From Obrimoposthia wandeli (taxonomy: Eukaryota): DNA of 64,000 nt. Below, in pieces: positions 1-21,722 of this stretch. The notes under the pieces were generated by a model. That model was not told where the DNA came from and made no database searches. It saw only the letters and a program-made list of their open reading frames with translations. Location: positions 186,001 through 250,000 of the forward strand of contig CDROCS010001500.1 of NCBI GenBank assembly GCA_977020255.1, in the 5' to 3' direction. Both the position numbers and the translations under genes were made by a program. The first letter of the stretch is position 1, and the number at the start of each line of letters is the position of its first letter.

Positions 1-502
1 TATTAAAAAAATCTCATGATAGTTTGTGAAACCAAAAGCTCTTTAATTTTAATTTGTAAACTGATGAGATGTTAGAAATAATAAGTGATTCGAAAATTAT
101 TTATGGAAATGTGATAGTTATAAAAATCTGATTTTCTCTCAAACTCAATAAGAAATTAATAATTACCCACACAAACATCAAGAAGATAACTGACGATTTC
201 CGCTATTTGTTTGATCTCATCATGCCATTTTTCTCTTTAATAGCATCATATAATGTAAGCAATTGGGTTTATCAATTCGAACATTTTAAAGCATCGGTTA
301 AATGGTTAGTTTATATTTTTATTGAAAGTTTTTTTCAAAAGATATTTAACTATAAAGTTAGTTAATAAGAAGTTTGAAATAGAAAATTCATTATTTTTTA
401 CATATCCTTACATAAATTAAAAATTCTTTGATCTGTGATTTTATTTAGCCTTACCAAGTGATATCAAACTTATCAAATAATGGTTTTCTAAAAATATAAA
501 TA

Positions 503-1786
503 TGTTGGAAAAATATATTAGCTATTTGTTTAAAAAAGAAAAATAAAAATATAAAATTTTTAAAAAAAAAATAAAAGGTAAAAAGGAATTAATTAACTGA
601 AAATTAATTGGGAACTTTCCTTAATTAGGGAAAAGTTCTGATTTTTAAAAATGTGCACTTTGGCATTTTGTCTCGGGATAATCAATCTCCGACGGGAAAA
701 AAGCCCGTTTCGCCCTGCCGGGCTCATCAGGGAGATGGCTTGTTATCTCTGACTTCGCGGTGGATTCCGCGAAGCCAGAGATAACAATAATAAAGTCAGG
801 GAAAAGAGGGAAAGATTCCCCCTTTCATGTGCCGACGAATATCGTCGACATGTGATGTTAGTGTGCGCAAGTGCACAATTCAACACACACACACACTCAC
901 TCAACTTCCTTACTCACTCACAACTCACTCAACATTAACACTCACATACTCACTTACATACTCATCTCACTACTCACTCACAGCTAAAATGTGTTTATTT
1001 GTGTATGTGTGTTGATTTTGTTTTTTTCAGTTGTTGGAGTGTGGACATGCCGGATTTTTAGTCAATGGGCAGCGTTTTTGTGCCATTGCATTGGCACAGA
1101 TTACCAGTGGCAGGCAGAGATTGTGCACAAGTAACAAGAACAGTATGTGTGCAGCAGTTAGATATTTAAGCTGCACACTACTTGTGACTTTTCAGAATCA
1201 AAAAATTATCTTACAGAAAACGAAATTTGAATTCCCAAAAATTTTAACAATCAATTTTACCAATTGTGGAACTGATATATTGAAAATTTAACAATTAATT
1301 TTACCAATTGTGGAACTGATATATTGAAAATTTAACAATCAATTTTACCAATTGTGGAACTGATATATTGAAATTTTACCAATTGTGGAACTGATATTGA
1401 AAATTTAACAATTAATTTTACCAATTGTGGAACTGATATATTGAAAATTTAACAATCAATTTTACCAATTGTGGAACTGATATATTGAAATTTTACCAAT
1501 TGTGGAACTGATATATTGAAAATTTAACAATCAATTTTACCAATTGTGGAACTGATATATTGAAAATTTAACAATTAATTTTACCAATTGTGGAACTGAT
1601 ATATTGAAAATTTAACAATCAATTTTACCAATTGTGGAACTGATATATTGAAAATTTAACAATTAATTTTACCAATTGTGGAACTGATATATTGAAAATT
1701 TAACAATTAATTTTACCAATTGTGGAACTGATATTGAAGTTGATATATTGAATAAATATTATTTACTATTGTGGACTTTTATAACA
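503..1786 (+). repeat. 5' LTR of element 1 (1284 bp)
   Basis: Begins TGTTGGAAAAATATATTAG and ends GGACTTTTATAACA; matches 13528-14665. Confidence 0.95.
1243..1735 (+). repeat. Tandem array of a ~44-bp unit (TTAACAATCAATTTTACCAATTGTGGAACTGATATATTGAAAAT), with shorter variants, inside the 5' LTR
   Basis: About 12 head-to-tail copies read directly, with no unique spacers. Confidence 0.9.
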
Positions 1787-1787
1787 T

Positions 1788-1800
1788 TGGTGAGCCCGAA
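1788..1800 (+). other. Primer-binding-site-like sequence TGGTGAGCCCGAA
   Basis: TGG lies 1 nt after the LTR end, the position expected for complementarity to a tRNA 3' CCA. The priming tRNA was not identified. Confidence 0.7.
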
Positions 1801-2884
1801 GAGCGAGCACATTAAGATAATTTGCTCTGTTTTTTTTTGTTGTTGATATATTATTACTTATTCTAGTATTTTTTTTACTATTGTATTTATTTTACTATTT
1901 TACTATTTACTATTAAATTGTAGATTTTTGTTATTGTAGAATATCTGTATACTTTAAAATAGTTAGAACTAGAAGTATAACATAGGTTATTGTTGAAATA
2001 AATAACGTATATTTTCTTTAACATTGAAATATATTGTATATTCAGTACTCGTAGTAGTATTTTGAGTACTACATTTTAGATAAGTTCATATTAGGTTTAG
2101 TATTATAAAATACGTTTTATATATAGCTTGGATAAAATAATTCGATATTTTTGGAATTATTTATTAATTGTGGTAGAGGTACGGGATAAAAATACAAACC
2201 ACCAGATATTTATCGGGGTTTTATTGTTATTTTTGAGGACAAGTACATTGTCTTTAACTATTAAAGTAGAAATTTAGGACAAATAAGAACACATTTATAA
2301 AATAAATTTTTGCAGACGTGTTATTGAGTAAAATAATATATATTTAGGATTTTCACAAATTTATTTTAATATTTTTACTAATTCAAGTTAGAAATAAAAT
2401 ACACTAGGGTTAGCAAATTAACAAATTTTCATAGTTTTTGAAGCAATAGTTTTTGATTCAAAATTATCCTGTGGTTGATTGAAAATATATTAATAGTTTA
2501 TCTTAACATAATTTAAAATTAACAAATTTTCAATATCAGTTTTTAAAATAAAAATAGTGATAACAGATTTTACTTAAAGATATATTAATAAGTTAGAAAT
2601 TTTTCTATTACTTTGGTTGAAAGTGCAGCTCAAATCACGGTAATCGATTATCATAAGGCCGAGCTGTATTTTGATCACAGAGCAGAAATAATTCCTGACT
2701 GTTTTTAAAAATTCATTTATTTAAATATAAAATTTATTTAATCGTTGTCAATAAAACTAGACAACAATATATAAACACATAAATTAATTTTCGACCCAGT
2801 ACGCAGGATAATAGTGAACAATACACAAAGATTTCAAAATCTAAACGTAGTGCTAATCTTCACTGGAGACGCATTCAGACTAGA

Positions 2885-3955
2885 TTGGTAAGAACTAACA
2901 CAAGTGAAACACTACCACAGAGACCTAAATCCCAGATAAATTTTAGAACAAATAACGAATTTTTCCCTGAAACTCCGTTAGTTCACCAACACACGGATCG
3001 CTTAATTTCAACCGACTCTGAAAGCCAAGGCCTGACATCAAATTCGGATACAGAAAGTTTATCCTTACCACAAACATCTGACTCAGACAACTCGTCAGAA
3101 ACATCAGATACAGTGGCAGAACCAGTACCACCTAACATAGAAATAAATAACGAACAAATAAACGAAGTACCTCAAATGGCAAATCATAGATTAAACATAC
3201 CACTAGACGCATTTAATGGCGATAAATCATCTTTACCAGAATTCTTGAATAGATATGATTTTTTTGCTCAAGCATTCAAATGGACAGACCTAGAAAAACT
3301 TAGAGTTTTTCCAGCATACCTAAAAGGCACTGCCCTAACCATTTATAGAGGACTAACAAATCTACAAAAAGACACATGGGAACACTTAGTCCAGCATTTC
3401 CAAAATATGGTTTTAGGAGCACAGTCCGACCAGAACTACTTAAATCAATTTAGACAACGAGAGCAACATGTAGGAGAACCCACAAATATATTCGCAGTCG
3501 AATTACGACGACTTGCATTAAAATCTTTTCCCGAAATAGAAGAAGCACAAAGAGAACGATTACTTTTACATCAATTTTTACATGGATTAAATAACAAAAT
3601 TAGAGATCACCCTGCCTTACTAGAAGTAGAAAACTTTCAACAGGCTATAGGAAAAGCTCAACTAGTAGAAGCAAGACTGAATATGATACAGCAAACCGAA
3701 GTTTCAGCATTATCTTTTGAAAAAATAGAACGACCACAAACGCCACCAAACTACAACCAATCTAGGAATTTTAACCAAGATACTCAATATAATTTTCAAA
3801 ATCCTCAACAATTTAGACCACCAATAAATAATTTTTATAGAAACCAGACAAACAGAAATTTTGCAAACTCACAATTTACACAAAAGATCTTTTCAAAAAT
3901 GCACAAATTGTGGACTCCAAAACCATACAATAGAAAATTGTCGAAAATTAAGTAA
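2885..3955 (+). CDS. gag: Gag capsid region of element 1
   Basis: First long ORF after the 5' leader. FNGDKSSLPEFLNRYDFFAQAFKW...YLKGTAL and LLHQFLHGL resemble the retrotransposon gag capsid domain. The last ~30 aa are out of frame with the knuckle ORF. Confidence 0.85.
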   Translation: MVRTNTSETLPQRPKSQINFRTNNEFFPETPLVHQHTDRLISTDSESQGLTSNSDTESLSLPQTSDSDNSSETSDTVAEPVPPNIEINNEQINEVPQMANHRLNIPLDAFNGDKSSLPEFLNRYDFFAQAFKWTDLEKLRVFPAYLKGTALTIYRGLTNLQKDTWEHLVQHFQNMVLGAQSDQNYLNQFRQREQHVGEPTNIFAVELRRLALKSFPEIEEAQRERLLLHQFLHGLNNKIRDHPALLEVENFQQAIGKAQLVEARLNMIQQTEVSALSFEKIERPQTPPNYNQSRNFNQDTQYNFQNPQQFRPPINNFYRNQTNRNFANSQFTQKIFSKMHKLWTPKPYNRKLSKIK

Positions 3956-5675
3956 CATAAAATTTTGCAGATTTTGCAAAAAAGACAATCACACAATTGA
4001 AACTTGTAGAAAATTAATAAATAGACAGAGTAATAATACACTACCAAGGAATAATAACTTCAATAAACCAAATAATTATGACAATAATCAAAATAGATAT
4101 TTTAATAATGATACAAAATTTTGTAAGATTTGTAATATGAAAAATCACAACACCGATGACTGTGGAAAATTAAACACAATGATGAATCAATTTGGAAAAC
4201 ACAACAATAAAACAACCACAAGTTCAAAAACAGTACAATTCAGTACTCAAGATCAACAATATACCCCAAGAAACCCTATTCACACTATAGAAAATACAGA
4301 AACAACTCCAAACACAGACGAATTAGCATTGTTAAAATTACGACTTAAAGAAATGGATAATCGCTACAAAGAAATACACCAACAATGCCATAACAGTGAA
4401 CCACAAACAGATAGAACAAACTTACAATCTGAATTTGGAGACATGTTTAGAGATGGTTGTTTGACATTACAAAAAAATAAATATACAATCACAAAAACAA
4501 ACCAAACTACTCAAACACAAGAAAAGAAAGTAAAACACAAGAAAAATCGTAAAACAATAAAAAATCAAAAAACTAAAATTTTTAAGAATACAAATAATCT
4601 TAATAAAATGATGAAAAAATTATGGAAAATTATTCAGATAATATTAATAATATGTCTAATTATGAACATGATAAAACCAATTAATGCTTTAGAAGCATAT
4701 GATTGTTCAAAATATAAAATCCAAAATAAATATTATTTAATGGATTTACAGCAATGTGCAGACGCTGACCCAAATGAGGTAAAAATCCAAAATACTAAGT
4801 TATATCAAGTATATCAGGAAACAGATTTCATATATGCAGAAGTTTTCGAATGTAGAGTACATGTAGAGACATTTATAACATATTTTGGACAACATAGTCA
4901 CAATTCAATAGTAAAACCAGCATTTGGAAAAACACCAATAATAGTTGACGCTTTAAATTGTAAAGATGCTTTCGCAACAGGAGAATTGAGAATAGATAGG
5001 GAGATTAAAGTCCGAGCGGCGAAAAATAAAATAATTCAACAAATTATATCAGTTGTAGGTACGATTAAATCTGATGGGGAATGTACAACAGGAACTTATG
5101 TCGTAATGGGAGTTAAGCAAAGTGGTTTAGTAGTTATTAAAAATTTTGAAGTCGAACTAAGAACTTTCAAAGCAACATTCAACCCTTCTACAAACACAAT
5201 GGTAACAATGCCATTTTGTGAAGCAAACACGGGTTCTTCAATACTTTACTACAAAGTAAAAATCGATCAATGTAAATTAATACATTTAAAATCAGAAACT
5301 TTTCAAATAATTCAAGGAAAAAGATTTAGAGATGATCCGGAACTAGATCAACAAATTCCAAAGGACATACACAAAAAATATAGAACTAGAAAAATACGTA
5401 AAACACCAACTCCAACTATATTAATGTCTATTGAACAAGGTTCAGGAATGCGATTTATTAAAAAGAAAGAGGAATCCCGATGCGGACACTCTGTTTATAC
5501 AACTAATTATAAAGGAATATATTTAAGTAATGAAAAAATACATAATGCAAAAACGACACCAACTAAATTTGATATTAAAAATTATGATTATTTTAACAAT
5601 AAATTAGATTATTTTTATCACAAAGGACTAATGACAATAGAAGCAATATATAGAGAAACTATAATGAATGATTGA
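3861..5675 (+). CDS. env: Gag nucleocapsid (3 CCHC knuckles) fused in frame, through an internal signal-like segment, to the N-terminal part of a chuvirus/gB-like envelope glycoprotein
   Basis: Knuckles CTNCGLQNHTIENC, CRFCKKDNHTIETC and CKICNMKNHNTDDC; hydrophobic LWKIIQIILIICLIMNMIKPINA; then AYDC...QC...ECRVHVETFITYFGQHSH, matching the YDC...CGMHSH signature of chuvirus-type glycoproteins. Confidence 0.8.
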   Translation: MQTHNLHKRSFQKCTNCGLQNHTIENCRKLSNIKFCRFCKKDNHTIETCRKLINRQSNNTLPRNNNFNKPNNYDNNQNRYFNNDTKFCKICNMKNHNTDDCGKLNTMMNQFGKHNNKTTTSSKTVQFSTQDQQYTPRNPIHTIENTETTPNTDELALLKLRLKEMDNRYKEIHQQCHNSEPQTDRTNLQSEFGDMFRDGCLTLQKNKYTITKTNQTTQTQEKKVKHKKNRKTIKNQKTKIFKNTNNLNKMMKKLWKIIQIILIICLIMNMIKPINALEAYDCSKYKIQNKYYLMDLQQCADADPNEVKIQNTKLYQVYQETDFIYAEVFECRVHVETFITYFGQHSHNSIVKPAFGKTPIIVDALNCKDAFATGELRIDREIKVRAAKNKIIQQIISVVGTIKSDGECTTGTYVVMGVKQSGLVVIKNFEVELRTFKATFNPSTNTMVTMPFCEANTGSSILYYKVKIDQCKLIHLKSETFQIIQGKRFRDDPELDQQIPKDIHKKYRTRKIRKTPTPTILMSIEQGSGMRFIKKKEESRCGHSVYTTNYKGIYLSNEKIHNAKTTPTKFDIKNYDYFNNKLDYFYHKGLMTIEAIYRETIMND

Positions 5676-6470
5676 AAATTAAATCAGGAAATATTAAAAA
5701 CGAAATTGGCAATTATTGCAACTAACCCAGAATTAATAACACCATTATTACCATTAGCTGACGGTACTTTTGGAAGAGTAATGGGAGAAGTGTTATACAC
5801 TTATCAATGTAAAATGTAATAGTTAACATAAGAAATCATCAAAAATGTACAAAAGAATTACCAATTTCTTACAAAAATAATTCATTATTTGTAGAACCAA
5901 TCACTAGAATTATACTTTTTAACACTTTTAGCATAAAAGAAATAAACTGCTCAAACATAATGGCACCTCATTATCAAATTTCAAAAGATATTTGGATTTC
6001 ACTTCCAAGAAGAGATATTGTCGCAGAACCACAAAAATTACAATTAACCACTCTCAGCAACGATATCAATATACAATCAGATAACGAATTAAACACAAAA
6101 GGAATTTATATACAGGAAGATATAGATAAGTTAAGAAAATAAATTTTATTTCCACAAATAAGATCCAGAATTTTAACACAAATCATAGAAAGATCAGTAC
6201 CTGACGGAATTAGCCGTCCCGATTATGACTTATTACTTTCTCCAAATCATTTTATAAAAGCCACTAAAAACACCATGTCAAAAATATGGGGTAAATTTTA
6301 ATTTTTGGACAAGCATTTTCTGGATTAGTTGAATATATGCTCTATTAATTTGTTTTAAGATTCTTCTAAGTCAAATTTTATCAACATATTATATTTATAA
6401 AGTTGGAGGATTAACATGGAAATTAATCTTAGGATGTTTCCCATTTTTGGCAAAATTCCTTATTTTTAAT
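5676..6470 (+). pseudogene. env: C-terminal part of the gB-like envelope, including the membrane anchor (disrupted by stops and frameshifts)
   Basis: Reading on past the TGA gives KLNQEILKTKLAIIATNPEL...GEVLYTYQC. Later segments read CTKELPISYKN, FVEPITRII, CSNIMAPHYQI and LNTKGIYIQEDIDKLR, followed by hydrophobic segments at ~6290-6470; all are collinear with chuvirus-type G. Confidence 0.75.
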
Positions 6471-6660: not shown

Positions 6661-6900
6661 GATAAACGACCATATGTAAAGGTAGAAATTAACGAATATA
6701 AACTTAAAGCTTTAATTGACACAGGATCAATCGTAACAGTTTTAGACGAATCTTTCTTAAAAACACAACAAAAATTACTTTCTTCTTAAGGAAAATAGTC
6801 AAGTCACAGCAGCAAACGGTCAACCCGTAGATATAATAGGAAAATTAGACTGTCTTTTAAAATAGGAAATAAATTCATAAAAATACCTACAAGAATAATG
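6661..6900 (+). pseudogene. pol: Retropepsin aspartic protease (frameshifted)
   Basis: RPYVKVEINEYKLKALIDTGSIVTV (DTG motif near 6718), with IIGID downstream. Confidence 0.85.
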
Positions 6901-6917
6901 AAAATTGTCCTTGCCAA

Positions 6918-7364
6918 ATGATCATAGGAATAGATACATTAAGAAGATTAGGAAATACTTCCACTTTGATTTTGAAAAATCAAATAAAAGACATTTACAG
7001 ACCTAACGCTAAAGATGAATACGAGTTAGAAATAAAAGGAGATATCATTCTCCAACCAAGAACAGAAACAATGTTACAACTAGAAACTAACATAATCACA
7101 GAAAAAGATGTATTATTTGAACCTTATAAATATCAACAAGAAACCTTGAACTACGTTTTGCCAAATATAATTTGTAAAATAAAAAACAACACAATACCAA
7201 TCAGAATCCTAAATGCAGACATTAATGAAATTCATCTCAAGGAAGGAGTACGTCTTGGAAAAATAAGTGTTATTGAAAATATTGAATTAATAGATAATGA
7301 AAAAATAGAAGATAAATCTACGATAAATTTTAACGATATTAAATTAAATGATTATGAAAAATAA
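6918..7364 (+). CDS. pol: End of the protease plus the PR-RT linker (dUTPase-like beta-rich linker seen in some gypsy clades)
   Basis: Pattern ILQPRTE...LFEP...IPIRILN...IHLKEGVRLGKI; lies between PR and RT. Confidence 0.55.
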   Translation: MIIGIDTLRRLGNTSTLILKNQIKDIYRPNAKDEYELEIKGDIILQPRTETMLQLETNIITEKDVLFEPYKYQQETLNYVLPNIICKIKNNTIPIRILNADINEIHLKEGVRLGKISVIENIELIDNEKIEDKSTINFNDIKLNDYEK

Positions 7365-7436
7365 AAACTTAAAACTTTAACAGAAAAATATGATGTAATA
7401 TTTGCTAAAAATGAATACGATTTAGGTCGAACAAAT

Positions 7437-9071
7437 TTGATTAAACATAATCTTCCGTTAACAACAAACACCGCAATAAAACAACGACCCTACCGAATTC
7501 CATATGCCTACAGAGATGAGGCTCAAAGACAAATAAAAGGAATGTTAGAAAACGAAATTGTTAGAAGAAGTTTTTCTGCATGGACATCACCTGTTGTTTT
7601 ATTAAAAAGGAAAGATGGTTCTTTGAGATTTTGCGTAGACTACAGAAAACTAAACGAAGTCACTCACAAAGATACTTATCCACTGCCAAGAATTGATGAA
7701 ATATTAGACAAACTAAAAAATGCACAAGTATTTACAACTTTAGATTTACAGAGTGGATACTGGCAAATAGAAATTGAGGAGTCAGATAAATATAAAACAG
7801 CTTTCTCAACAGGAGAAGGATTGTATGAATTCAATGTCTTACCATTTGGATTAACCGAAGCTCCAGCAACATTTCAGAGATGTATGAGCTATATTTTAAT
7901 GGATGCAGATCACGTAATGGTATATATCGACGACATTATTATTTTTTCAAAAAATTTTGAAGAACATTTAAAAGATTTAGAAAACGTATTCTTTAGATTA
8001 CAGGTAGCAGGATTAAAACTAAAACCAAAGAAATGTGAATGGATAAAAGATAAAGTAAATTACTTAGGACATGCTGTATCAGCAAAAGGAATACAACCAG
8101 ACGAGAGTAATGTAGAAAAGATTAAAAATTTTCCAATCCCAAAAACAGCAAAAAATATACAGGAATTTTTAGGGCTTGCAGGATATTATCGAAGATTTAT
8201 TAGAAATTTCGCACAAATAGCAATACCATTAAATAAACTTATTAAAAAAGATGAAAAATTTGAATGGGAAAAAGAACAACAAGAATCTTATGAATATTTA
8301 AAACAAAAATTAATCGAAAAACCTATACTTAGATATCCTAATTTTAATAACTCATTTTTAGTTATGACTGACGCCAGAGGTTATGCGTTAAGAGCAGTTT
8401 TAGGACAACAGGAAAATAACGAAAAAGATCATGTGATAGCATATGCGAGCAGAGGTCTTAAAAAACATGAAAAGAATTACTCAACGATAGAAAGAGAATG
8501 CCTAGCTATTTGCTTCGCAATGGAACATTTTAAACATTACTTATTAGGTCGAAAGGTTTATGTTTACACAGATCAAAGACCATTACAATGGCTTTTAAAT
8601 CATAAGGATACAACATCTAGATTAATGAGATGGGCATTGATTTTACAAAAATATGATATTGAAATAAAATATAGAAAAGGAAAATCTAACGCTAATGCAG
8701 ATTGTCTATCACGAATAAGAGAAGAAATAAACGAAATAACTGCAAACGACATCGAATTAAATCTTTTTACAATAATTCAAGCTAAATATGATGAAAAAGT
8801 AATTACTAAACTTCAAAGCAAAGATAATGAAATTCAGCAAATAACTAAATACATTAGCACAAACGAAGTACCAACAGATGAAAAATTAAGAAAACATTTA
8901 AAAATTCACGAATCACGATACAAATATAGTAATGAAATATTATATTATTTAAATGACAAAAATCTATATTCACTAGTTATTCCTAAAGAAATTCAGTGTC
9001 AATTACTTCTTCAATATCATAATGGAGCGCTAGGAGGACATTTATCATCAAAAAGACACATTCACGATTAA
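7437..9071 (+). CDS. pol: Reverse transcriptase + RNase H + start of integrase
   Basis: QRPYRIP, LRFCVDYRKLN, LPFGL and YIDD motifs; RNase H VMTDA...IAYASR...ERECLA...TDQRPL...NANADCLSR; HNGALGGH marks the start of the integrase HHCC domain. Confidence 0.97.
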   Translation: MIKHNLPLTTNTAIKQRPYRIPYAYRDEAQRQIKGMLENEIVRRSFSAWTSPVVLLKRKDGSLRFCVDYRKLNEVTHKDTYPLPRIDEILDKLKNAQVFTTLDLQSGYWQIEIEESDKYKTAFSTGEGLYEFNVLPFGLTEAPATFQRCMSYILMDADHVMVYIDDIIIFSKNFEEHLKDLENVFFRLQVAGLKLKPKKCEWIKDKVNYLGHAVSAKGIQPDESNVEKIKNFPIPKTAKNIQEFLGLAGYYRRFIRNFAQIAIPLNKLIKKDEKFEWEKEQQESYEYLKQKLIEKPILRYPNFNNSFLVMTDARGYALRAVLGQQENNEKDHVIAYASRGLKKHEKNYSTIERECLAICFAMEHFKHYLLGRKVYVYTDQRPLQWLLNHKDTTSRLMRWALILQKYDIEIKYRKGKSNANADCLSRIREEINEITANDIELNLFTIIQAKYDEKVITKLQSKDNEIQQITKYISTNEVPTDEKLRKHLKIHESRYKYSNEILYYLNDKNLYSLVIPKEIQCQLLLQYHNGALGGHLSSKRHIHD

Positions 9072-10053
9072 ATTTAAAATACTATTGGATTGACATGAAA
9101 GAAGATGTAAAAAATTGGTAAAACATATGAAATATGTCTTAAACGGAAAAATACTTTACGTATCACAAAATATCTTTAAAACCAATACCTTAATCATCAG
9201 GCACCATGGAAACTGTTGCCATGGATGTAATGGGAACTGTACCTGAAACGACCCGCGGAAATAGTTTTATGATAGTATTTTCGGATTATTTTTCAATATG
9301 GCCGGAGGCTTTTCCAACTTATGATCATAAGGCTGAAACCATCGCGAAGGTTTTAGTCGAAAAATTATTTTTTACTTTCGGTGCACCCCGAAATTATTAA
9401 CCGACAAAGGTCCTGAATTTATAAATAATGTATTAGCGTCAATAGCTGAAATTTTTCACATTAAAAACTGACGGGTTAGTAGAAAGATTTAATAGAACCC
9501 TCGAAGATAATATTGATGCATCATACACAAACAACAACCAAACAGATTGGGATTTACACATACCTCCATGCCTTTTTTGCATATAGACATCAGTACATGC
9601 ATTCACAGGAGAAACACCTTTTATCTTATGTTCCTCAGAGATCCTCAAATGCCTATTGACCTAAAAATTACTACAACCTACTACACAATACTTTAGAAAT
9701 ACCTGAATATAAAATAGAAATTAGAGAAAAAATAAAACTAACATTCGAAAAAGCTAAACCATTTTTAAAAAACATACAAGAAAATTACAAAGAATATTAT
9801 GATAGAAGAACTAAGCCATCAAATATTAAAAAGCGGAAGTAAAGTGATGATTCACAATCCACAAATTAATGTAGGATTGTCTCACAAATTATCAAAGCCA
9901 TACAAAGGACCATATACAGTCATTAGTACCAACGGAACCAACATAACAGCTAAACTAGATAATGAACCAAAATCAAAAGAAATAAGAGCACATATAAACA
10001 GATGTCGAGAAATACCTGAGGAGAATACAAAAGTAAAAAAGTCACAAATATAA
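9072..10053 (+). pseudogene. pol: Integrase core and GPY/F domain (several frameshifts)
   Basis: Fragments PWETVAMDVMG, TDKGPEF, VERFNRTL and YKGPYTV in different frames. Confidence 0.88.
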
Positions 10054-10128
10054 CTTAAGATCAACTAATGATAATACAGTTCTACAAATGTTGACAATAA
10101 AAACTCACAAAAACAAAATAAAACTATT

Positions 10129-11398
10129 TTGAGTCATCAAACCCGAAATACAATAAAAATATCAATAAAAGAAATTGGTAAAATAATGATGTTATTGATA
10201 ATATATTTTACAATAAAATATAACCTACTGAAAGTAAACGCAACAAACATAAATGACAATCAATCAATCATACAACAACAGACAAATAAATTCGACTCAA
10301 CAACTCATCTCATAAAAAATTTTGGATTAATAACAATACTACCTGAAATCACATCAATAAAGTTAAAAAATTTCTCTTTTACAAACAAAACAGGAAATGT
10401 GCAAATCACACAAACAGATAGAAAACAAAATATAATTATTTCAGGAATAAAATCACAAAAAATATACAATACCATTTTTTAAGAACAGAAACACAATATA
10501 AAATAAGAATTAAGTCGAAATTAAAAACATATAACACTCTATGAAAGAATTATAGAAACTCATATATACCTAGCATCAATATTAAAAACAACAGCAAAAT
10601 ATATATCAAAACATAAAATAATGATAAAATGGGAATTTCAACTAAAAATAGATGACTTAGATAAAGCCCTCATTAGAATTAGATATAGAGGACACAATGC
10701 TAATTTTTGGAAAGACTCAGAAAAACAATTAGAAAATACACAAACTAAAACAAATTTAACCATAGAAAATATAAGATATCCAGAGAAAATAATAATAGAC
10801 AATAGAGAATGCGTAATCACTAATAAACCAATAATGTACAGACAATGGAGTCAAAAGTTTGAAAGTTATAAAAATCTAACAAAATTAACAATTTTAGGAA
10901 ATAAGATATCCAAACTATATCAACCTACAATTTCGTTGGTCAGCAGTAAAAATTAAGAAATATGTTAAAGAAATAACCACAAAACAATTGCTACATACCA
11001 CAACATTTACATCAAAAATTTACAGAGTTACAAATCAAGTTGAAATTACGGAAAAAATAAGAATTAAATTAAAATTAAAAACAACAGAAATAATATCCCA
11101 TAAATCATTTAATGAAAGTTTAAAAGTGCACTATGGTAAACAAGAACATTCAAGGAATGAAAATAAAAAAGAACTTATAATAATAGTTATAGTAATCGAA
11201 ATAATTACATTTATAAATCAAATATCATGGAAAATGTTAATTTTGAAACATACAAAAATGATAGAAACAAAACAACGAAAACACTTTTGTGGGCCCCCAG
11301 GCCCTTTTACTATTTATATTATTCCCAAGGATGAGAATTCTTCAGAATTATCCATAAATACGGTAATAGAAAATAGAAAAAGAAATATAACACAATAA
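10129..11398 (+). pseudogene. Accessory ORF-A: putative type I membrane glycoprotein (stops and one frameshift)
   Basis: 10129-10482 and 10621-10956 share a frame; 10988-11398 is shifted. N-terminal hydrophobic IMMLLIIYFTI, C-proximal hydrophobic LIIIVIVIEIITFI, and several N-X-S/T sequons. Confidence 0.4.
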
Positions 11399-11593: not shown

Positions 11594-11987
11594 ATGAACA
11601 GATTGGCAAAAGTTTGTAAAAAATGCAAAAAATTAGAGAAAAAGATTCGAGATGTTTCCAGACAGCATGACGACTACTATATAAAGATCACAACTCAAAA
11701 TGAATCACTGAAACAGTTAATAAAACAAAGTGTGGAAGAAAAATTGAATAATGATTTAACAATTGACGAACTAGAAGGAGATTGACACATAGTTTGGCAG
11801 AATAGACTATTTAATACAACAAACTTTAAGTCAACGATCAACTATAGCCTCATTAAGAAGACAAATGATGACCTATAGCGACATGATAAACTTTATATGA
11901 CCATTAATCCTACTATCCCAACTAATACAACACTTGATGATGGATATGACTCGGATATGAACATTGGTGAACAAAATTCTGGTTAAA
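11594..11987 (+). pseudogene. Accessory ORF-B: small protein with CxxC and a coiled-coil-like segment
   Basis: ATG-initiated 63-aa ORF (VCKKCKKLEKKIRD...); the frame continues through isolated stops to ~11987. Confidence 0.3.
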
Positions 11988-12153
11988 CTATAACCATACA
12001 TCCTTCTTTTGTACAAATTGTCTAACTTTTGTTAATAAGTTTATTTTCATGACAAATCCCACATACTGCATGGATAAGACTGATATTTTTATAACTTTAA
12101 GACTGTGAAATAATTATATTATTTTATTCAACTAACAAATTGATTAAAGCAGA

Positions 12154-13323
12154 ATGGATAACAATCACCTGGATACGACTCCAGACCAGCTCACTCGGTC
12201 AGATCAAACAAAAAAGCACAGCAAAAATAGAAAGAGGAAAACGGAAAATATGCCAGAAAGGTGGTATTTAGCAAAATTCCTGTATCAAAAGATGCGTCAG
12301 TTTAGCATTGCATACTTTAGAAACAACGGAGGAAGAAAAATGTTTTCAAATCAAACATTTCTTCCCAATAAGTTAAAAATTACCACAGAAGAAAGAACAA
12401 GCGCACTTATTTTTTTCAATGAAAAAAGACCAACCCATATGGCTCTCAGCGAAATATTCCCAGATATTAATTGTGAAAAAATAGATATTCACGTGGCACT
12501 AGGAGTAGCCCATTTAAAAACCAAATCAGATAAGACATTAAACTTTCTGATGATAGGAAATCACACCTACACCTTACAAGCAGCTTAATTAGAAAATCAA
12601 TATAGCATAAAAATAGGAAGAGGACCAAATCTATTATTTATAGAAAAAATAAGAAAAGCAGAAGAACCTCAACAAATAGCCCTTTTTGAATTAAAAAACG
12701 CACAGAAACCAGCAATTTTATTCCTCGATTGCGAAATGGTGATATCAGTAGATAAACATCCAGTTTTAGCAAGTGTTTCTATTATAAATTTCATAGGTAA
12801 CGTAATTATAGATACACTGTGCGTAACTAGAGACAGAGTAAGAAATTACGTTACTAGAATAACTGGACTGTCAGATAGAAAGTTACAAGGATGTAGAGAT
12901 GCTGATGAAGTAATTGAGGAAGTAAAAAACATTGTGTATGGTAACATCATCGTAGGTGTGGGACTAACAAACGATTTAAAAGCTTTACGCCTACAGAAAT
13001 GGATGTTATTCAACATTGTTGATTTAGGAATATCCAAAAGCATAAAATCAGAACTAAATCACAATCACCCAAATATTGGACTCGCCAACATGGTGCGGAA
13101 ATACTTAAATATAGAAACACAAAAAGGAGTCCACACTAGCATGGAAGATGCAAATCACACCCGAAAAATTTTCATAATGAAGGAGGAAATGTTGAATAGA
13201 GAGTTTGATTTGACCGAGGTGATGAATCCACCATCTAGCGAGAACAACCCCAGTTCATCGTTCTCGCATAAGACCGGAAACTCGGAGTCCGGTACACAAA
13301 ACTCCCCGATTTTGTTGGATTAA
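12154..13323 (+). pseudogene. Accessory ORF-C (~390 codons, one internal TAA at 12586-12588) ending in a DEDDh 3'-5' exonuclease of the REX4/ISG20 type
   Basis: 12154-12588 and 12736-13323 are the same frame, separated by a single stop. ExoI LFLDCEMV, ExoII VGVGLTNDLKAL and ExoIII HTSMEDA are all intact. Confidence 0.9.
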
Positions 13324-13527: not shown

Positions 13528-14665
13528 TGTTGGGAAAATATATTAGTTATTTGTTTAAAAAAGAAAATTAAAAAATAAAAAAATAAAAGGTAAAAAGGAA
13601 TTAATTAACTGAAAATTAATTGGGAACTTTCCTTAATTAGGGAAAAGTTCTGATTTTAAAATGTGTACTTTGGCATTTTGTCTAATCAATCCCCGACGGG
13701 AAAGCCTGCTCGCCCTACCGGGCTCATCAGGGAGATGGTTTATCCTGACTTCGCGGTGGATTCCGCGAAGCCAGAGATAACAATAATAAAGTCAGGGAAA
13801 AGAGGGAAAGATTCCCCCTTTCATGTGCCGACGAATATCGTCGACATGTGATGTTAGTGTGCGCAAGTGCACAATTCAACACACACACACACTCACTCAA
13901 CTTCCTTACTCACTCACAACTCACTCAACATTAACACTCACATACTCACTTACATACTCATCTCACTACTCACTCACAGCTAAAATGTGTTTATTTGTGT
14001 ATGTGTGTTGATTTTGTTTTTTTCAGTTGTTGGAGTGTGGACATGCCGGATTTTTAGTCAATGGGCAGCGTTTTTGTGCCATTGCATTGGCACAGATTAC
14101 CAGTGGCAGGCAGAGATTATGCACAAGTAACAAGAACAGTATGTGTGCAGCAGTTAGATATTTAAGCTGCACACTACTTGTGACTTTTCAGAATCAAAAA
14201 ATTATCTTACAGAAAACGAAATTTGAATTCCCAAAAATTTTAACAATCAATTTTACCAATTGTGGAACTGATATATTGAAAATTTAACAATTAATTTTAC
14301 CAATTGTGGAACTGATATATTGAAAATTTAACAATTAATTTTATCAATTGTGGAACTGATATATTGAAAATTTAACAATCAATTTTACCAATTGTGGAAC
14401 TGATATATTGAAATTTTACCTATTGTGGAACTGATATATTGAAAATTTAACAATTAATTTTACCAATTGTGGAACTGATATATTGAAAATTTAACAATCA
14501 ATTTTACCAATTGTGGAACTGATATATTGAAAATTTAACAATTAATTTTACCAATTGTGGAACTGATATATTGAAAATTTAACAATCAATTTTACCAATT
14601 GTGGAACTGATATTGAAGTTGATATATTGAATAAATATTATTTACTATTGTGGACTTTTATAACA
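13528..14665 (+). repeat. 3' LTR of element 1 (1138 bp)
   Basis: Preceded by purine-rich GGAGGA (PPT-like). Same termini as the 5' LTR, with fewer copies of the 44-bp unit (~14239-14615). Confidence 0.95.
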
Positions 14666-14899
14666 AATACAAAATTGTATATTTAGATAAAATTTAATTA
14701 ATATTACTTAGTGATTTCACAATACTTTGAATTTTAAGAATATAGAACATTTTAAAATTATATATTTATAGTACTGAGTTTCCTAGGTCTTACCTTTTAC
14801 TAGAGAATATATATTAATAACTACATATTGATTATATGATTATTGTATATTGATTATATGAGACCATTAGAACCCATTAACATATCACGAAGTTTTAAG

Positions 14900-16250
14900 A
14901 AGAAACTGTTTTTGAATGAAACATATAAGAACTCATTTCGAACTTTTAAAAGAATTCATAACATCACTAAGTTTGGTTTATCTTGATTTTAGGAAAGATT
15001 TTTTATTAGACAAATATGCAAGTTTTGTTATACATCAAGCAGATGATTTGAGTTATAAAATAGTAATACCTTATAAATCCTCAGGAAATAAGTTACTGTA
15101 TCAGAAAAGAAATCCTGACCATTGTACATTTAACGGATATTTTTCTCGCTATATGTATTTAAAAAGATTTCCAATATGAACTGATAATTAAAGCTATAGC
15201 TTTCATGCTTAAAACTAAAAAGCCAAATACACCTCAATTTCAAATGTCATGGTAGTCTTATTAGTAATCTTGATATGATTTTAGAGTACAGAAATGTGAA
15301 ACCCACTCGAATACTGATGTGTTGGGAATATCTTTTAAATATTTATTGAAAAAATAAAGATATAAAAATTAAGAAAAAATGGGAATTAATTAATTAATTA
15401 ATTAATATCTTTCCTTAAATAGGGAAAAGTTCTAGTTAAATAAAATATGCACTTTGGCATTTTGGTTTTGGAGTGATCAATCTCCGACAGGAAAAAAGCC
15501 TGTTTCGCCCTGCCGGGCTCTTCAGGGAGATGGCTTGTTATCTCTGACTTCTTGGTGGATTCCGCGAAGCCAGAGATAACGATGGTGAAGGTTAAGAAGT
15601 CAGAGATAAGGAGGGAAGATTTTCCATTTTCATATACCGACGAAGATCGTCGACATGTGGTATTGGTGTGCGGAAGTGCACAATTCAACACACACACAGC
15701 AGACATTGCATACACCTACTCACTCACTCACTAGTACTCAAATCTTTCTAACTCACTCTTGCTCATTCACTATGGATGGAGTATATGTGTGTATCTGTTT
15801 TTATGCATTTTCCGCCTGTCCAGAGTTCGACAGATGGTGGAATTTCCCGGCTGCACATGTGCCTGTGTGCAGAGCCGGGAAATATCAATTTTCTCCCTCT
15901 CTCCTTTCCAATCCCCCCTGTCTGTATGTGCGTGAGCCAGGAAATCCAATTCAGGGACCTTCTCTCAATAGCAGAAACAGCAGTCCCCTCTCTACGAGAT
16001 TGCCACTCTCCACATCGCTGACCGCTGCCTCTGTAACTCGTTTTCTCTCTTTTCTCCTCATTCCATTTCCTTATAAAAACAATTTCATTATGCAGTGATT
16101 TTAATTGATTCAGAAACATTTATTATTCAATAATTCGGAACAATTTCATCATTCAGAAACAATATATTATCCAATTTAGAGCTCCTTGTTTTTTTGTTTT
16201 CAAATCAAACATTAACAGATGCACTTTCCAGAAGTAAATGTGGAACTTGT
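14900..16250 (+). pseudogene. pol: Old gypsy RT-connection/RNase H remnant, interrupted by the solo LTR
   Basis: FELLKEFITSLSLVYLDFRKDFLLDKYASF resembles FxLLKEKLTTAPIL.FP....F..DTDAS. Joining across the solo LTR gives ...HSNTD|ALSRSKC, the NADALSR end of RNase H. Confidence 0.6.
15320..16217 (+). mobile_element. Solo LTR of a subfamily related to element 1
   Basis: TGTTGGG...ATTAACA termini with perfect 4-bp TSD GATG (15316-15319 and 16218-16221); the first ~400 bp align with the element 1 LTRs. Confidence 0.88.
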
Positions 16251-16307: not shown

Positions 16308-16394
16308 CCCCCCACTGTTCTTTAAAACCGTGCATGTGTGTGGAGTGAAATTTCACTCCACACACATGCACAATTTTAAAGGACAGTAGGGGGG
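16308..16394. repeat. ~87-bp near-perfect palindrome centred at 16350/16351
   Basis: GTGCATGTGTGTGGAGTGAAA|TTTCACTCCACACACATGCAC is a perfect 42-bp palindrome, extended by CCCCCCACTGTTCTTTAAAA / TTTTAAAGGACAGTAGGGGGG. Confidence 0.95.
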
Positions 16395-16414
16395 TCCATA
16401 AAAGAGGTGAAGAG

Positions 16415-17470
16415 TTGAATAAGTTGATGACAGATTTGGCTACTGTTGATACAGTTTCATCAGACATCAGCTATTTGGTTGAGGTTGACTTATCAATCCC
16501 TTGCAATATGCATGATAAATTAGATGATCTTCCAGTAGCACCTGTTCATCGATGCCCACCTAATTCAAAGGTTAAGAAATTATTGTTAACACATGAAAAC
16601 AAGTTGAATTATGTTGTGCATTGGCGGCTTCTTCAATTCTACTTAAAGTTGGGAGCGAAAGTTACTCGAATTTATCGTGCTATAAGCTTCAGTCAAAACT
16701 TTGTGTTTAAAGACTATATTGAGAAGAATTCTAGAAAACGTAATTTGGCCACTAGCAAATTCGATCGAGATTTTTACAAGTTAAAAAGTAATAGTCTCTT
16801 TGGAAAAACTGGAGAGGACTTGCGGAAACGTATTTGTCTACGGTTTTACAATGATGAGCGTAAACTAATAACATATACTAACAAGTACAACTTCAAGCGT
16901 AGTTTTACAATTGCAGATGACTTGGTAGCAGTGTTATTAGGAAAACAGAGTATTTGTCTCGATCGACCGAGTTATATAGGTCAAACGGTTTTAGACATTT
17001 CTAAACTCAGAATGTACGAGCTTCAATACATAGAATTAGAGAAATATCGACAAGTATTCAATTGTGAGATCAAAATCGCAGCTGGGCACACTGACTCTTT
17101 CTTTTTAGAATGTAGGAATGTTAGTTTAAATAATCAATTATTACCGGCAATGTTTAGGGACAACTTACTAGATACCCATAAATATCCCGCTAACCATCCT
17201 CTACACTCTATGAGTTTAAAAGACATTATCGGGAAATTTAAGGATGAAAGCGAGGGACAGGTTTCGTATGATGATTGTATATTCCTACGCCCTAAATGCT
17301 ACAGTTTACATGCATCTAATAATACATGTTCAATGAGAGCTAAAGGTGTGGGAAGAAACAATATTATACATGAGGCCAACCGGAAAGTTTATGATACTGG
17401 GTGTATTGAATACTATAATATGACAGTTATGTTTTTATTGATTTGTATTTCTGAATCAAACACTCCGTAA
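16415..17470 (+). pseudogene. polB: Protein-primed family B DNA polymerase, C-terminal half only
   Basis: YLVEVDLSIP...LHD...PVAP; KLKSNSLFGK (motif B, KxxxNSxYGK-like); YIGQTVLDISK; AGHTDSF (motif C, YxDTDS-like, altered); GKFKDE; LRPKCY; RAKGV. Confidence 0.92.
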
Positions 17471-18641
17471 ATAAGCACCGTAGTAGGATTAATTAAAGCT
17501 GCATTGAACTTAATTTCTAGTCGTACATTTCCATCCTTTGGTAGTTGGCATTGGTTTATATCAAAGTCTGGTGCCAAAACAAAGGTGAAGAACGGGCAGC
17601 TATTTTTAAACTCAGTGAAAGAAATACCATTGTTTATATTTTTATCTAGTTGGCCCAAATTCCGAATAATATATTGCGTATAAGCCAAAGCATAAGCGTT
17701 ACCTTCGAAATCTGTTTTATATGTTTCGCGATAATCAGTATTTCTTGAAAGTGTCACTGAACCTACATTAAGATTGTCAAATTGAGTTGCATATGTCGTA
17801 TAATTTCCTAGATACTTTGCAGTTTTTGAAAATAAATTAAAATGAATTTCGGTAATCTTACATCACCAAAAATTTGATCCTTATTAAAAGCTTGTGTACC
17901 CGTACCTAAAAAGTAGGATATAAGTTTAGTTTCTCTAATAGGATAACAAGCATTGTTTTTTTCCATTCCTATATTATGTACCATTAAAACTGATTGCTCC
18001 ATTTTAACTCTTCAGGCATACAATTTTGCATCCAAAATATCAAGTCTAGGTTTTAGAATGTCTGTGCTTATCAAAGAAAAATTCCATTTATTACGTTTCA
18101 AACGAAGATGTACATTAACACCAAGAATTAAATATTTCGGTTGTTCAAAGAAATTCAATATCAAAGACCTACACATTTCGTAAGCTTTAGAACCCGCAAT
18201 CCATTCTTTGCGAGTTGCAACCGTTTTATCATAACCAATGGTTGCCAAATTAGTATTTTGAGTATCAGTACTATAATTCAAAAGACTTTCAATCAAAGCT
18301 TTATGAGCATAGGAAGAATTTCCACCTTCAATTTTGACATTATTAAGAGTAACAATGGCATCATTAAATAAAGAATTAAAGAGATAATTTACAGGTGTTA
18401 CATCGGCATTTTCCTCTAAATTAGTACCATCCCGAATTAATACTTTTATTTGAACATAAAGCAAAGTTTCATTCAAATCTAAATATTCACTATTGGAACC
18501 ATTAATATTAAATTCTAAATTGGTTAAAGTGGTTCCTGAAACTGAGTTAACTAGAAATCTTTCTTCAAAGGAAGCATTATCTACAACTACTTGTGGAAGT
18601 GGTTTATCAAAAATACACAATTCAGTTTTGGCGCAACTCAT
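17413..18641 (-). pseudogene. Polinton major capsid protein (double jelly-roll), split over three frames
   Basis: N-terminus SCAKTELCIFDKPLPQ resembles CxKSELDLF..PPTQ of Polinton/adintovirus hexons; YLDLNETLLYVQIK; C-terminal FTFVLAPD...GNVRLEIKF. Confidence 0.88.
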
Positions 18642-19015
18642 TTTGCAAATATTGTTTCTTCAACTTTCTTACGTTTGTTTATATTAATTTTTTGCTTCTT
18701 TTTCAGTTTAAATCCACTACCTCCCTTGCTTTTATTTGATTTACCTTTTCTAATCAAATTAGCAACTTCAGGTAAAACATTATCAAGTTCATCAAGTGCA
18801 TGCTTCTTAAAAGTTGGTATTAGTTTATTGTCCTTAGATGAAAGGTAATCCTTTCCTAATTTTGATATAAACCGCCCAAGTCTCTTTAAAAAAGGAAAAG
18901 CAAATCTACCTAATGTTCTAAGCCAGCCAGATCCGTATTGTTTACCAACAAAATATGGTAATTCTCCACCTTGTTGGCTTTGACTATAAGCTTCAATTAT
19001 TGCTGGATTCGCCAT
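18638..19015 (-). CDS. Basic virion core-type protein with protease-cleavage-like GG motifs
   Basis: QQGG, QYGSG-WLRTLGRFAFPFLKRLG, KGGSG and a Lys-rich tail; its stop overlaps the MCP start. Confidence 0.7.
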   Translation of the reverse strand: MANPAIIEAYSQSQQGGELPYFVGKQYGSGWLRTLGRFAFPFLKRLGRFISKLGKDYLSSKDNKLIPTFKKHALDELDNVLPEVANLIRKGKSNKSKGGSGFKLKKKQKININKRKKVEETIFAK

Positions 19016-20057
19016 TTTGTTTTCTTAAATGTATTGTTAAACTTGTCTTGGTCCCGTACGTGAAATCTATTAGTTGTCCAGAATCATATCTAATATTTAC
19101 TTCAATATTGTTTATAGAAAAGAGAGCAACTGGAAGATACATTGGTTGATCTATACACATACCGACAGCGTCCACATCTCTAGTTTCATTTTTAGATATC
19201 CATATTGTTCTCAAAATTGGAACTCGTTGTCCTCCTACAAGCGTTGGTTCTATTAAATTAGTATAAATATATAAATAATTAACAGCATTTAAAGGTTTTG
19301 CCTTATTTTTAGCTTTTATGGTTTTTATTGTATGGGTTTCAAAGGTATTTCTGTTTAAACCAAAGTTTTTAGCGAGTTTATCATCAAATGAAACACGTTT
19401 TATATTGCTCTTTACTGTAAACGTTAATTTACCATTTTTTTAATGTTACACATTTATCGAAATATTCACTACATTCGTTCTGTATTAATTTACAGAAATT
19501 CAATTCACTATCTAATTTATAATCTTTTGAAAACATTTTCAGTTCCACTACATACTTTGGTCTCGTTTCAACTAAAAACACTTTTGTTATTCTATCAGGA
19601 ACATTTTTAAACGATTTAGATGACGCTATATCAGATCTTTTCATACCTACTACATGTCCACTGTCAAAACCGAATTGAAGAGCTTCTCTGTCAGATCCAA
19701 ATATAATTTGAATAGGTTTTAAAAAATGTTTTAGTCCATTTTTAAATCTGACTTTGTTTTTTTCATATATTACTTTCACTTCTTTATCTATACACTTGTA
19801 ATAGAACTTTCCTTTACTATCAAACCCTATCACAACTTCAATTGCTTTTTATGATCATCTTCTTTTGTAAACGAAATATGTGAGATTTTTCTGATAGTAA
19901 TTGGAGAATAATAAAAAGAAAATTATGTTAAAGCCACTTCTCATTCTCCTTGGAGATTTATAGGATTTTCCCAATCGATAATAAAGCTACTAGCGTAATT
20001 ATCTGGTTGAGGCTTCGGACATCCGTTACTGGGTAAAACCATATACATAGACTTCAT
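18993..20057 (-). pseudogene. Polinton minor capsid protein (penton), with stops and frameshifts
   Basis: N-terminus MYMVLPSN...PDNYASSF...PINLQGE*EVAL; C-terminus YIYTNLIEPTLVGGQRVPILRTI...YLPV...IEVNIRYDSGQLIDF...LTIHLRK. Confidence 0.85.
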
Positions 20058-20094
20058 ATTACCTAACGTTAGATGCTTTTCGAACTATCCTTTT

Positions 20095-21180
20095 TTAAGA
20101 ACATGGAATTTTTTGAAAAGATGTAGAGGTCTGAACATAACCATGCCATTTACCAAAGTATTGTTTATGTTTACCTGTACCCTTAGATTTTAATATTTTT
20201 TGAATACGGAAAACGCTAGGTTTATTTGATATTACTTGTAGTTCTTCCTCGTAAAATTTACCGTGGACAATAGTATTGTCAGCATCTTTAATAGTATACA
20301 TAATTTGATTACTCTTTTGATCAATTTTACTTATACAAAATATTTCATCGCTCCAATTCTGATCAACGTTTTTAATAAATGGGGTAGAGTTAATTTTCGA
20401 AATTCGAACATATTCGTTTTTCTTATATTTAGCTCTTTTAATATTTTCTTTTTTATTCCTGTCCATCCAAATGTCCATAGAGTTTTTATTAGTAACATCA
20501 ACAGGTCTCATTCCCTTGAGACCTCTATGTTCCGAGTGATTATAGACATGTATTATTTTAGGTAAAACTTGGATCCATTTTTTATTTCCTTCTTTTGTGA
20601 AATACTTTTTTATTCGATCTCTTAAAGTACGATTAAATCTTTCTACTACTGCTGCTTTGTACTGTGAAAACACAGAGTAATGATTTATATTATTTTGTTT
20701 AAATAATGATAGAACTTGCTTATTATAAAATTCTTTTCCTAAATCAGTTTGCACATTTTGTGGAATGTCCTCTTTTAATATTTCTTTAATGGCTTCAAGC
20801 ATAGCTATTGAAGACTTTGCTTTAACGGGAATTGCACGAGCAAACCTGCTAAATACATCAATACATGTTAAAATATATCGATATCCCTTATTAATTGAAG
20901 AATATGGGATCATCTCCATCAAATCCATTTGCTATAAATTATTAGGACCGCTGGTTTTGTAAGCTCTAGTTGGAAACCTTATTCTCATCGGCTTGTTCAG
21001 ACTGTAGGCTAACTGGTTGCTCAAACATTTCTGCGTTTTCTTGTAATTTTGTTTTGTTCTTTTTGCTAATTTTGAAACTCCTGTGTAGCCAATCGGATCT
21101 TTTGGATTGAACCATATCTTCTCCATTACAAAAATTTTAATAGAAAGAAAATTTGAATTTAGGTAAAGAAGGGTTAGCAC
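20095..21180 (-). pseudogene. int: Retroviral-type (rve) integrase with C-terminal chromodomain; one premature TAG in place of a Trp
   Basis: NNL*QMDL, CIDVFSRF, QTDLGKEF and VERFNRTL (DDE core); chromodomain-like FRIQKILKSKGTGKHKQYFGKWHGY. The two track ORFs are in the same frame. Confidence 0.93.
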
Positions 21181-21212
21181 CCATATCTTTAACTGATTTT
21201 ATAAATAATTGT

Positions 21213-21560
21213 TTATGAACGTGTCGCAGCTATAATACTACTCATAATTGAAGCAACAACTGGAATAACAGCCCCTATGAAACCACCATTCTGTTTAAGA
21301 ATAATATTTCGTTTCCTTTTTTTACTTTTTACATTAGCAATATATAGAAGAGTTTTTTTATATTTCTTTAATACATTTTTCCGTTTTCCAACTTTTACTC
21401 TACATAAAACTATATTATACAAAACTTCCAATATATAATCTACAACACAAGATGGAAATGCTTTAAGAATAATCATTCTCTTATGAGAAGAGGCTTTGAC
21501 TAAAGCTTTAAAATAGGGTATGCTTCTTTGTATTTTCTTCATTTTAATAAAAAGGTTCAA
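21213..21560 (-). CDS. Small Polinton virion protein ending in QNGG|FIGAVIPVVASIMSSII (candidate protease-released amphipathic peptide)
   Basis: Intact 115-aa ORF: basic body, then a GG cleavage-like motif, then a hydrophobic/amphipathic C-terminal helix. Confidence 0.65.
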   Translation of the reverse strand: MNLFIKMKKIQRSIPYFKALVKASSHKRMIILKAFPSCVVDYILEVLYNIVLCRVKVGKRKNVLKKYKKTLLYIANVKSKKRKRNIILKQNGGFIGAVIPVVASIMSSIIAATRS

Positions 21561-21722
21561 TTTGAATATTGTTTATATTCGAAGCCATTTACGTTTTTCC
21601 TTTATTTCTAACTACAGATTTGATTAATTTTTTCACTTCTTTTTTCTTAATGATTCTATTTTTTTGATTTCTTAGGCTTTGCTTTACGTTTTACTATCAA
21701 CTTCGTAAAAGGCATTGCGAAT

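Follow-up and report, generated by a model that had tools for sequence, protein, structure and literature searches.

A REX4/ISG20-type DEDDh exonuclease gene downstream of pol in a gag-env-pol Ty3/gypsy family of Obrimoposthia wandeli

Do LTR elements of animals code for enzymes that counter the RNA silencing of their hosts? The question is raised by a 64,000-nucleotide stretch of the Obrimoposthia wandeli genome (assembly GCA_977020255.1, contig CDROCS010001500.1, positions 186,001 to 250,000 of the forward strand), referred to here as the window, in which a Ty3/gypsy element of gag-env-pol layout, 14.2 kb long, contains an exonuclease frame at 12154-13323 (+). A preliminary description of the window read this frame as a captured nuclease. 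The gene lends itself to study: it is shared with a distant gypsy lineage, four natural versions can be compared, and its two-domain structure is small and well predicted. We present here the element, the family to which it belongs, the relatives of the enzyme, and the roles that it might play.

The element has the TG..CA LTRs, TSD, PBS-like motif and PR-RT-RH-IN pol order of Ty3/gypsy. From 5′ to 3′ it encodes gag, the PF24664 glycoprotein, protease, a further domain, RT, RNase H, integrase extended by a long tail, a CxxC ORF and the exonuclease ORF. The class III-type env between gag and protease (typed by Pfam, not by cysteine pattern) is placed as in GAG-ENV-POL errantiviruses. The LTR pair, 503-1786 and 13528-14665, has 18 mismatches in 1138 aligned gap-free columns, and the window copy is decayed throughout. 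The features are as follows.

499..502, plus strand: left 4-bp TSD, same letters as 14666-14669
503..1786, plus strand: 5′ LTR, TG..CA, with an internal tandem array at 44-nt spacing
1788..1798, plus strand: PBS-like TGG motif directly 3′ of the LTR
2783..3955, plus strand: gag-like frame, judged from position and from CCHC knuckles in an overlapping frame; without Pfam match
3828..6142, plus strand: env region between gag and pol, Monjiviricetes-type fusion glycoprotein (PF24664, E 2.9e-26 and 2.6e-19), fragmented in the window copy
6873..7364, plus strand: domain between protease and RT, without Pfam match
7365..9071, plus strand: reverse transcriptase and RNase H (RVT_1 E 1.7e-37; RT_RNaseH E 9.6e-38)
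9072..11398, plus strand: integrase and C-terminal pol extension of ~430-480 aa, a single frame in a sister locus and fragmented in the window copy
11594..11986, plus strand: small ORF 3′ of pol and 5′ of the exonuclease gene, with CxxC and a likely coiled coil; disrupted in the window copy
12132..12152, plus strand: predicted splice acceptor with branch-point-like CTAAC and a CAG one base before ATG
12154..13323, plus strand: accessory ORF of 389 codons, with disordered start, barrel domain, DEDDh exonuclease and disordered tail
12256..12663, plus strand: N-terminal domain (~residues 35-170), predicted double-stranded beta-helix (cupin/AlkB-like) with no HxD..H triad
12706..13209, plus strand: DEDDh 3′-5′ exonuclease domain, closest to ISG20L2/ISG20/REXO4
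13528..14665, plus strand: 3′ LTR, from the LTR alignment
14666..14669, plus strand: right 4-bp TSD, same letters as 499-502

In a sister locus the env frame matches PF24664 at E 1.3e-91 and continues in the same frame into protease and RT. The domain at 6873-7364 is putatively dUTPase-like, after the label used for Burro and rotifer elements. A motif resembling the PBS also follows the CA end in three loci with the B or C version of the gene (L094, L096, L102), and the 64-kb window contains no tRNA genes. The small CxxC ORF (~120-130 aa) is open in sister A and B loci (L146:8421-8837; L091, L101), has dN/dS of 0.20-0.30, and matched no family above cut-off. No Pfam family matched the pol extension above cut-off; a hydrophobic signal-like stretch was seen in it (window 10075-11398; L146:6880-8184), and its middle part is 76-82% identical between types in most loci. 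The 44-nt-spaced tandem array is present in both LTRs (1114-1778 and 14110-14701) at unequal length.

The preliminary description placed a ~390-codon frame with one premature stop between integrase and the 3′ LTR of a TSD-bounded element, and the coordinates, LTRs and TSD bear this out. The single in-frame stop, at 12586-12588, is shared with 1 of 29 sister loci. Relative to all 29, the window copy alone has a 1-nt insertion near 12210 and a 1-nt deletion near 12238-12242, opposing indels that put ~9 N-terminal codons out of frame. Downstream of the stop, the frame matches PF00929 (RNase_T) with E 2.4e-7 and 31.9 bits (cut-off 24). The five catalytic residues were read as D192 (12727), E194 (12733), D274 (12973), H327 (13132) and D332 (13147), so the exonuclease was correctly described as having its full DEDDh set (ExoI D-x-E, ExoII D, ExoIII H-x4-D). 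Four of the five residues (D, E, H and the final D) do not vary across 22 family sequences; the fifth, the ExoII acid, is D in 19 of them and E in the other 3. The histidine of the ExoII "GH" is usually replaced in the element family, as compared with REXO4, ISG20 and ISG20L2.

A search of the same genome returned 4419 first-look candidates, the 150 best of which were scored and are all 96-100% identical. An uninterrupted 391-codon frame was counted by hand in ~72 of these best 150 of 4419, a fraction biased upward because it was counted among the best scorers. Beside this type A, three further versions, B, C and D, came to light when a cellular REXO4-like protein and the Pfam family were used as queries. 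Whole-protein identities are 41% for A-B, 44% for A-C, 43% for A-D, 37% for B-C, 38% for B-D and 61% for C-D. A same-orientation RT lies upstream in 10 of 11 B- and C-type loci, and a pol tail in the eleventh. The D-type gene follows a pol tail in 6 of 8 loci; two that were extended show env and RT, one of them also gag. No gag, env or pol match was found in ~7 kb upstream of one D-type locus (L133) or in 1.4 kb upstream of another (L136). L133 (G000:C3629:106000-115999) has a second match 9.7 kb away, and is possibly a non-autonomous derivative that kept the exonuclease gene. Many intron-free PF00929 and AlkB matches of bacterial appearance were seen on contigs C506, C253, C361, C1802 and others, and the assembly seems to include bacterial contigs.

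Selection was estimated by the pairwise Nei-Gojobori method on natural copies. The A-type ORF has dN/dS of 0.13-0.25 in 6 of 6 pairs; four of the partners came via an LTR DNA search and so were not picked on protein similarity. Taken alone, the N-terminal domain gives 0.08-0.25 and the nuclease 0.11-0.16. The B type gives 0.19-0.30 (5 of 5 pairs), the D type 0.19-0.37 (5 of 5 pairs, with two intervals that include 1), and the C type 0.38-0.94 (three of six intervals include 1). Sister copies keep open frames under purifying selection, rather than lacking the ORF or letting it evolve neutrally. Among A-type pairs, dN is alike for RT, pol tail and exonuclease (0.03-0.046), while dS is 0.05-0.06 at RT and climbs to 0.18-0.21 at the exonuclease. 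With dN like that of pol and a higher dS, the exonuclease is conserved, not fast-evolving, and the types are old. A pooled dN/dS of 0.15 for the 29 nearest A copies was dropped since these had been chosen by protein similarity. Because dS is saturated, dN/dS between types is unreliable as a guide to positive selection.

Two C- and D-type proteins (L049, L138) end in a hydrophobic-plus-acidic motif that resembles a SUMO-interacting motif. As a family trait this was rejected, with 5 of 21 tails matching against 4.9 expected from shuffles.

By HMM profile, the nuclease ranks closest to ISG20L2 (1e-28), followed by ISG20 (2e-23), SDN1 (2e-17) and PAN2 (6e-7), and these are also its top solved relatives. 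The ranking places it nearer to REX4-like enzymes (REXO4/ISG20/ISG20L2/AEN) than to PAN2, SDN, ERI or DnaQ enzymes. The predicted exonuclease model resembles ISG20L2 at Foldseek E 2.2e-10 and target TM 0.82, with DnaQ among the lower-ranked fold matches, and named cellular proteins among the top library matches include "RNA exonuclease 4". REXO4, ISG20 and ISG20L2 are the best profile and fold matches and have the same catalytic set; the element enzyme differs from them in its separate branch and in having a barrel domain where the cellular proteins have a low-complexity N-terminus.

The REXO4 gene of the host was found in the same genome. It contains introns, and its domain is 29-34% identical to the four element types. 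In a domain tree (79 of 159 rows), a branch with 100/99 support separates the four types together with 18 library proteins from the rest, and host REXO4 sits among the cellular proteins; a 30-row mixture-model tree agrees. A topology that joins host REXO4 to the four types is rejected by the AU test (p 4e-100; its lnL is 77 lower). Long-branch attraction is a caveat on these trees, and an independent marker, the N-domain profile given below, agrees with the branch. Both trees are unrooted and hold no identified REXO1, PAN2 or ISG20 rows. The enzyme stands apart from host REXO4 instead of clustering tightly with it, and this separation, the open frames and the purifying selection together support the view of a captured, maintained accessory nuclease.

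The N-terminal region, left unassigned in the preliminary description, can now be given a predicted fold. In an AF2 model of a natural sister frame, the domain has a pLDDT of 92.8 and is predicted to be a double-stranded beta-helix, a cupin/AlkB-like barrel. The AlkB HxD/E...H iron triad and R-x5-R were not found: only one His is conserved (21 of 23 sequences), and a Glu partly so (15 of 23). Alignment by hhalign to 12 AlkB proteins gave a probability of 0.1%, with no profile similarity. The barrel is likely non-catalytic. A profile of the domain built from 14 sequences and run on 160 proteins finds type D and all four unlabelled members of the 100/99 branch at E ≤2.4e-4, with named cellular REXO4 proteins at E >1. 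The domain co-occurs with the element-type nuclease branch throughout the family.

Full-length relatives that are 31-36% identical turned up when 1.84 billion representatives were searched, and ~20 distant relatives carry the same N-terminal domain. Genomic context was obtained for 2 of the ~20 (one metagenome scan), and in both the gene comes directly after gypsy pol or a pol tail. In L111 it is directly 3′ of a gypsy pol with an open frame, the RT of which shares 58% identity with that of the window, and in L112 it follows a homologous pol tail at 39% identity. Several other relatives are on 13-16 kb contigs, which is a hint only. A whole-database search with the window frame as query returned only 2 cellular proteins, and 3 of 3 scans found no relatives in viral contigs. 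The distant pol tails (L111:3400-4776; L112:3-815) show a second aspartic-protease-like domain, a weak Pfam match at E 0.001, and a cysteine-rich region between hydrophobic segments.

The exonuclease is exchanged independently of pol. On an RT tree of 19 rows, B, C and D elements are intermixed, with a median RT nucleotide identity of 95.6-97.5%, and type A is at ~85% nucleotide identity to them. Essentially the same RT accompanies three enzyme versions. Across env and RT, sliding windows show B and C elements at 92-98% identity, which drops to 50-65% after the pol tail. Divergent versions beside nearly the same RT, with a sharp break after the pol tail, argue against a tight RT-specific interface. 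The pattern may reflect selection for diversity, or a pol homogenised among recombining families. Given a dN like that of pol and a higher dS, the four versions may be old lineages kept apart by pol homogenisation and not the product of an arms race. A correspondence of LTR type with exonuclease type did not hold up: downstream of the stop, members of one type differ in sequence, and ~360 nt are common to some C-D pairs.

The exonuclease is predicted to be made from its own spliced subgenomic mRNA, as the acceptor signal upstream of its ATG suggests. A CAG within 7 nt before the ATG, after a T-rich tract, was found in 35 of 37 copies of type A and in every copy of types B, C and D (6, 5 and 6 copies, respectively); since the types are related, these counts amount to at most four semi-independent observations. 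As background, a CAG precedes 13 of 206 ATGs in the element body. The CAG signal is present in the distant locus L112, and L111 has no CAG next to its ATG. The env of gypsy is itself expressed from a spliced subgenomic mRNA.

Contrary to the preliminary description, which knew of no standard account of such a domain as a gypsy accessory gene, the sections consulted of Rodriguez, Kenefick and Arkhipova 2017 (PMC5408684) describe DEDDy (RNase D-like) ORF3s in the Juno and Vesta gypsy elements of bdelloid rotifers. These ORF3s are also shared with Terminons, and those sections leave their activity unshown. Like the window ORF, they are separate DEDD ORFs downstream of pol with intact catalytic residues and modular gain or exchange. 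They differ in being DEDDy (Tyr in ExoIII, with a DEED variant), whereas all 22 sequences of the present family have H-x4-D. Compared with the rotifer elements as described there, the present ones add a fusion to a predicted barrel, env between gag and pol, four versions, thousands of candidate copies and clear purifying selection. The rotifer ORFs show, in the same sections, no sign of selection or benefit; here purifying selection is clear and the family very abundant. A DnaQ-like domain is called a known LTR accessory, citing the rotifer work, in part of PMC6338049, and this is repeated in part of PMC5718144. No REX4/ISG20-type DEDDh gene in an LTR element was found in open PMC and bioRxiv text, and Repbase or subscription journals could hold one; PMC12440569 gave no match for the terms sought.

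Because the enzyme is of the DEDDh (H-x4-D) REX4/ISG20 type and not the rotifer DEDDy type, the capture was independent. Gypsy elements have here taken up an exonuclease for a second time; the domain partner is new, the acceptor is conserved and the versions are exchangeable. That a 3′-5′ exonuclease was captured twice at this position points to a need that recurs in gypsy biology and that could be tested with a single recombinant protein.

Other known systems share parts of this arrangement. In the parts consulted of PMC13524379 (Chary and Hayashi) and PMC6431247, the GAG-ENV-POL errantiviruses with an HSV/gB-type env and planarian Burro, respectively, likewise place env between gag and pol; they too have a class III fusogen resembling that of mononegaviruses and a further domain between protease and RT. 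The words "exonuclease" and "DEDD" are absent from the main text and 7 supplements of PMC13524379. Burro is >30 kb, with a single giant ORF and apoptosis and ubiquitin domains (BIR/BCL2/MATH), as against 14.2 kb for the window element, and no exonuclease is given for it in those parts of PMC6431247. No BIR, BCL2 or MATH Pfam matches were found among the element frames scanned. An orchid gypsy AlkB (2-ODD) ORF resembles the present one as a double-stranded beta-helix in an extra gypsy ORF; according to the relevant passages of PMC9289625 it is an active m6A demethylase recently derived from plants, whereas the barrel here has no HxD..H and is fused to a nuclease. The viral ExoNs, arenavirus NP and nidovirus nsp14, are also DEDD exonucleases in virus-like elements, with precedent for immune suppression and for proofreading; they carry zinc fingers and belong to RNA viruses without RT (PMC7968707, in part). 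Neither ExoN appears by name among the top structure and sequence matches listed for the element enzyme.

Our best explanation, to which we give a probability of roughly 40%, is that the ORF is an old, selectively kept accessory gene for a 3′-5′ RNA exonuclease that destroys RNA that triggers or carries host silencing, acting outside the reverse-transcription complex. Splicing to the conserved acceptor would yield a subgenomic mRNA. The enzyme, by analogy with its closest solved or characterised relatives, would prefer RNA 3′ ends, including those of RNA within RNA:DNA hybrids; the barrel domain would bind substrate or a partner. The free protein, not tied to one RT, would then act on those hybrids or transcripts of the element that put the host on alert, or else on small-RNA guides; this host-facing target is the weakest step. 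Counter-defence is favoured since a free protein that does not co-evolve with RT fits a host-facing or RNA-facing job. Arenaviral exonuclease offers a precedent for immune suppression, and the proofreading ExoN of nidoviruses is, unlike the element exonuclease, as conserved as the polymerase (both from sections of PMC7968707). An arms-race reading is weakened because the type A protein is not fast-evolving (dN 0.037-0.046, like pol). Animal piRNAs usually have 2′-O-methyl 3′ ends, which slow such enzymes, and this counts against counter-defence. We think it unlikely that the whole forms an undescribed ancient retroelement accessory family across distant gypsy lineages, a dead cupin/AlkB-like barrel joined to a REX4/ISG20-type exonuclease and made from spliced mRNA, that suppresses small-RNA or hybrid-sensing defence in animals. 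If it does, the four versions would be alternative counter-defence alleles shuffled onto a common pol.

The main rival, itself somewhat unlikely, is that the enzyme helps replication by clearing hybrid RNA after RNase H nicking, or by trimming element RNA ends or provirus R-loops, with no host-facing role. Such a role fits equally well because human REXO4 works with RNase H1 on hybrids, degrading the hybrid RNA strand from nicks and stimulating RNase H1 (PMC12915616, in part). The strong purifying selection also suits it, as does the 3′-end processing of element RNA proposed for the DEDDy ORFs in sections of Rodriguez et al. (PMC5408684). A separate ORF outside Gag-Pol would not be packaged automatically, and the same RT works beside three versions; both points count against a helper. 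To our knowledge most gypsy elements replicate without such a gene, which counts against it too.

Two other readings are improbable. The exonuclease could be directed against rival elements or against incoming viruses (superinfection exclusion), or it could be a restriction factor that limits its own element. ISG20 is antiviral, and the versions that coexist could be marks of competing lineages. According to the relevant part of PMC10123124, L1 is restricted by host DEDDh exonucleases (PML-like, Plex9, TREX1), but no mechanism to tell self from non-self is visible and the versions recombine onto a shared pol. The activity could alternatively reside mainly in the barrel, or in RNA binding or interference with a host process such as ribosome-RNA processing, the nuclease serving a function outside those considered here. 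Selection on the N-terminal domain is as strong as on the nuclease, and the domain accompanies the nuclease branch family-wide; the catalytic residues, however, are kept in 22 of 22 sequences, and the barrel has no conserved HxD..H triad.

Very improbable is an RT proofreader that removes mismatched 3′ nucleotides from nascent cDNA. The DEDD fold is shared with DnaQ, a lower-ranked match, and the element is long at 14.2 kb, but the nearest relatives are RNases and not DnaQ, there is no fusion to pol, and the types are 37-61% identical beside RTs that are 87-95% identical. The RT-associated editing raised in the preliminary description is weakened by the gene being a separate ORF, exchanged independently of RT. 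A one-off transduction of host REXO mRNA as a neutral passenger, to which the lack of introns and the broken window copy would be suited, has a negligible chance: there are thousands of candidates and four types, selection is purifying, host REXO4 is 29% identical, the AU test speaks against it (p = 4e-100), and a relative lies after pol on an unrelated contig.

Beyond the element, the window holds a partial LTR of a related sub-lineage at 15320-15760, in parts 83-88% identical to the element's LTR, and a separate 33-nt tandem repeat at 27981-28244. At 16349-21572, on the minus strand, lie pieces that are presumably Polinton/Maverick-like; besides other frames, they include an rve integrase and a DNA polymerase B of the protein-primed type (PF03175).
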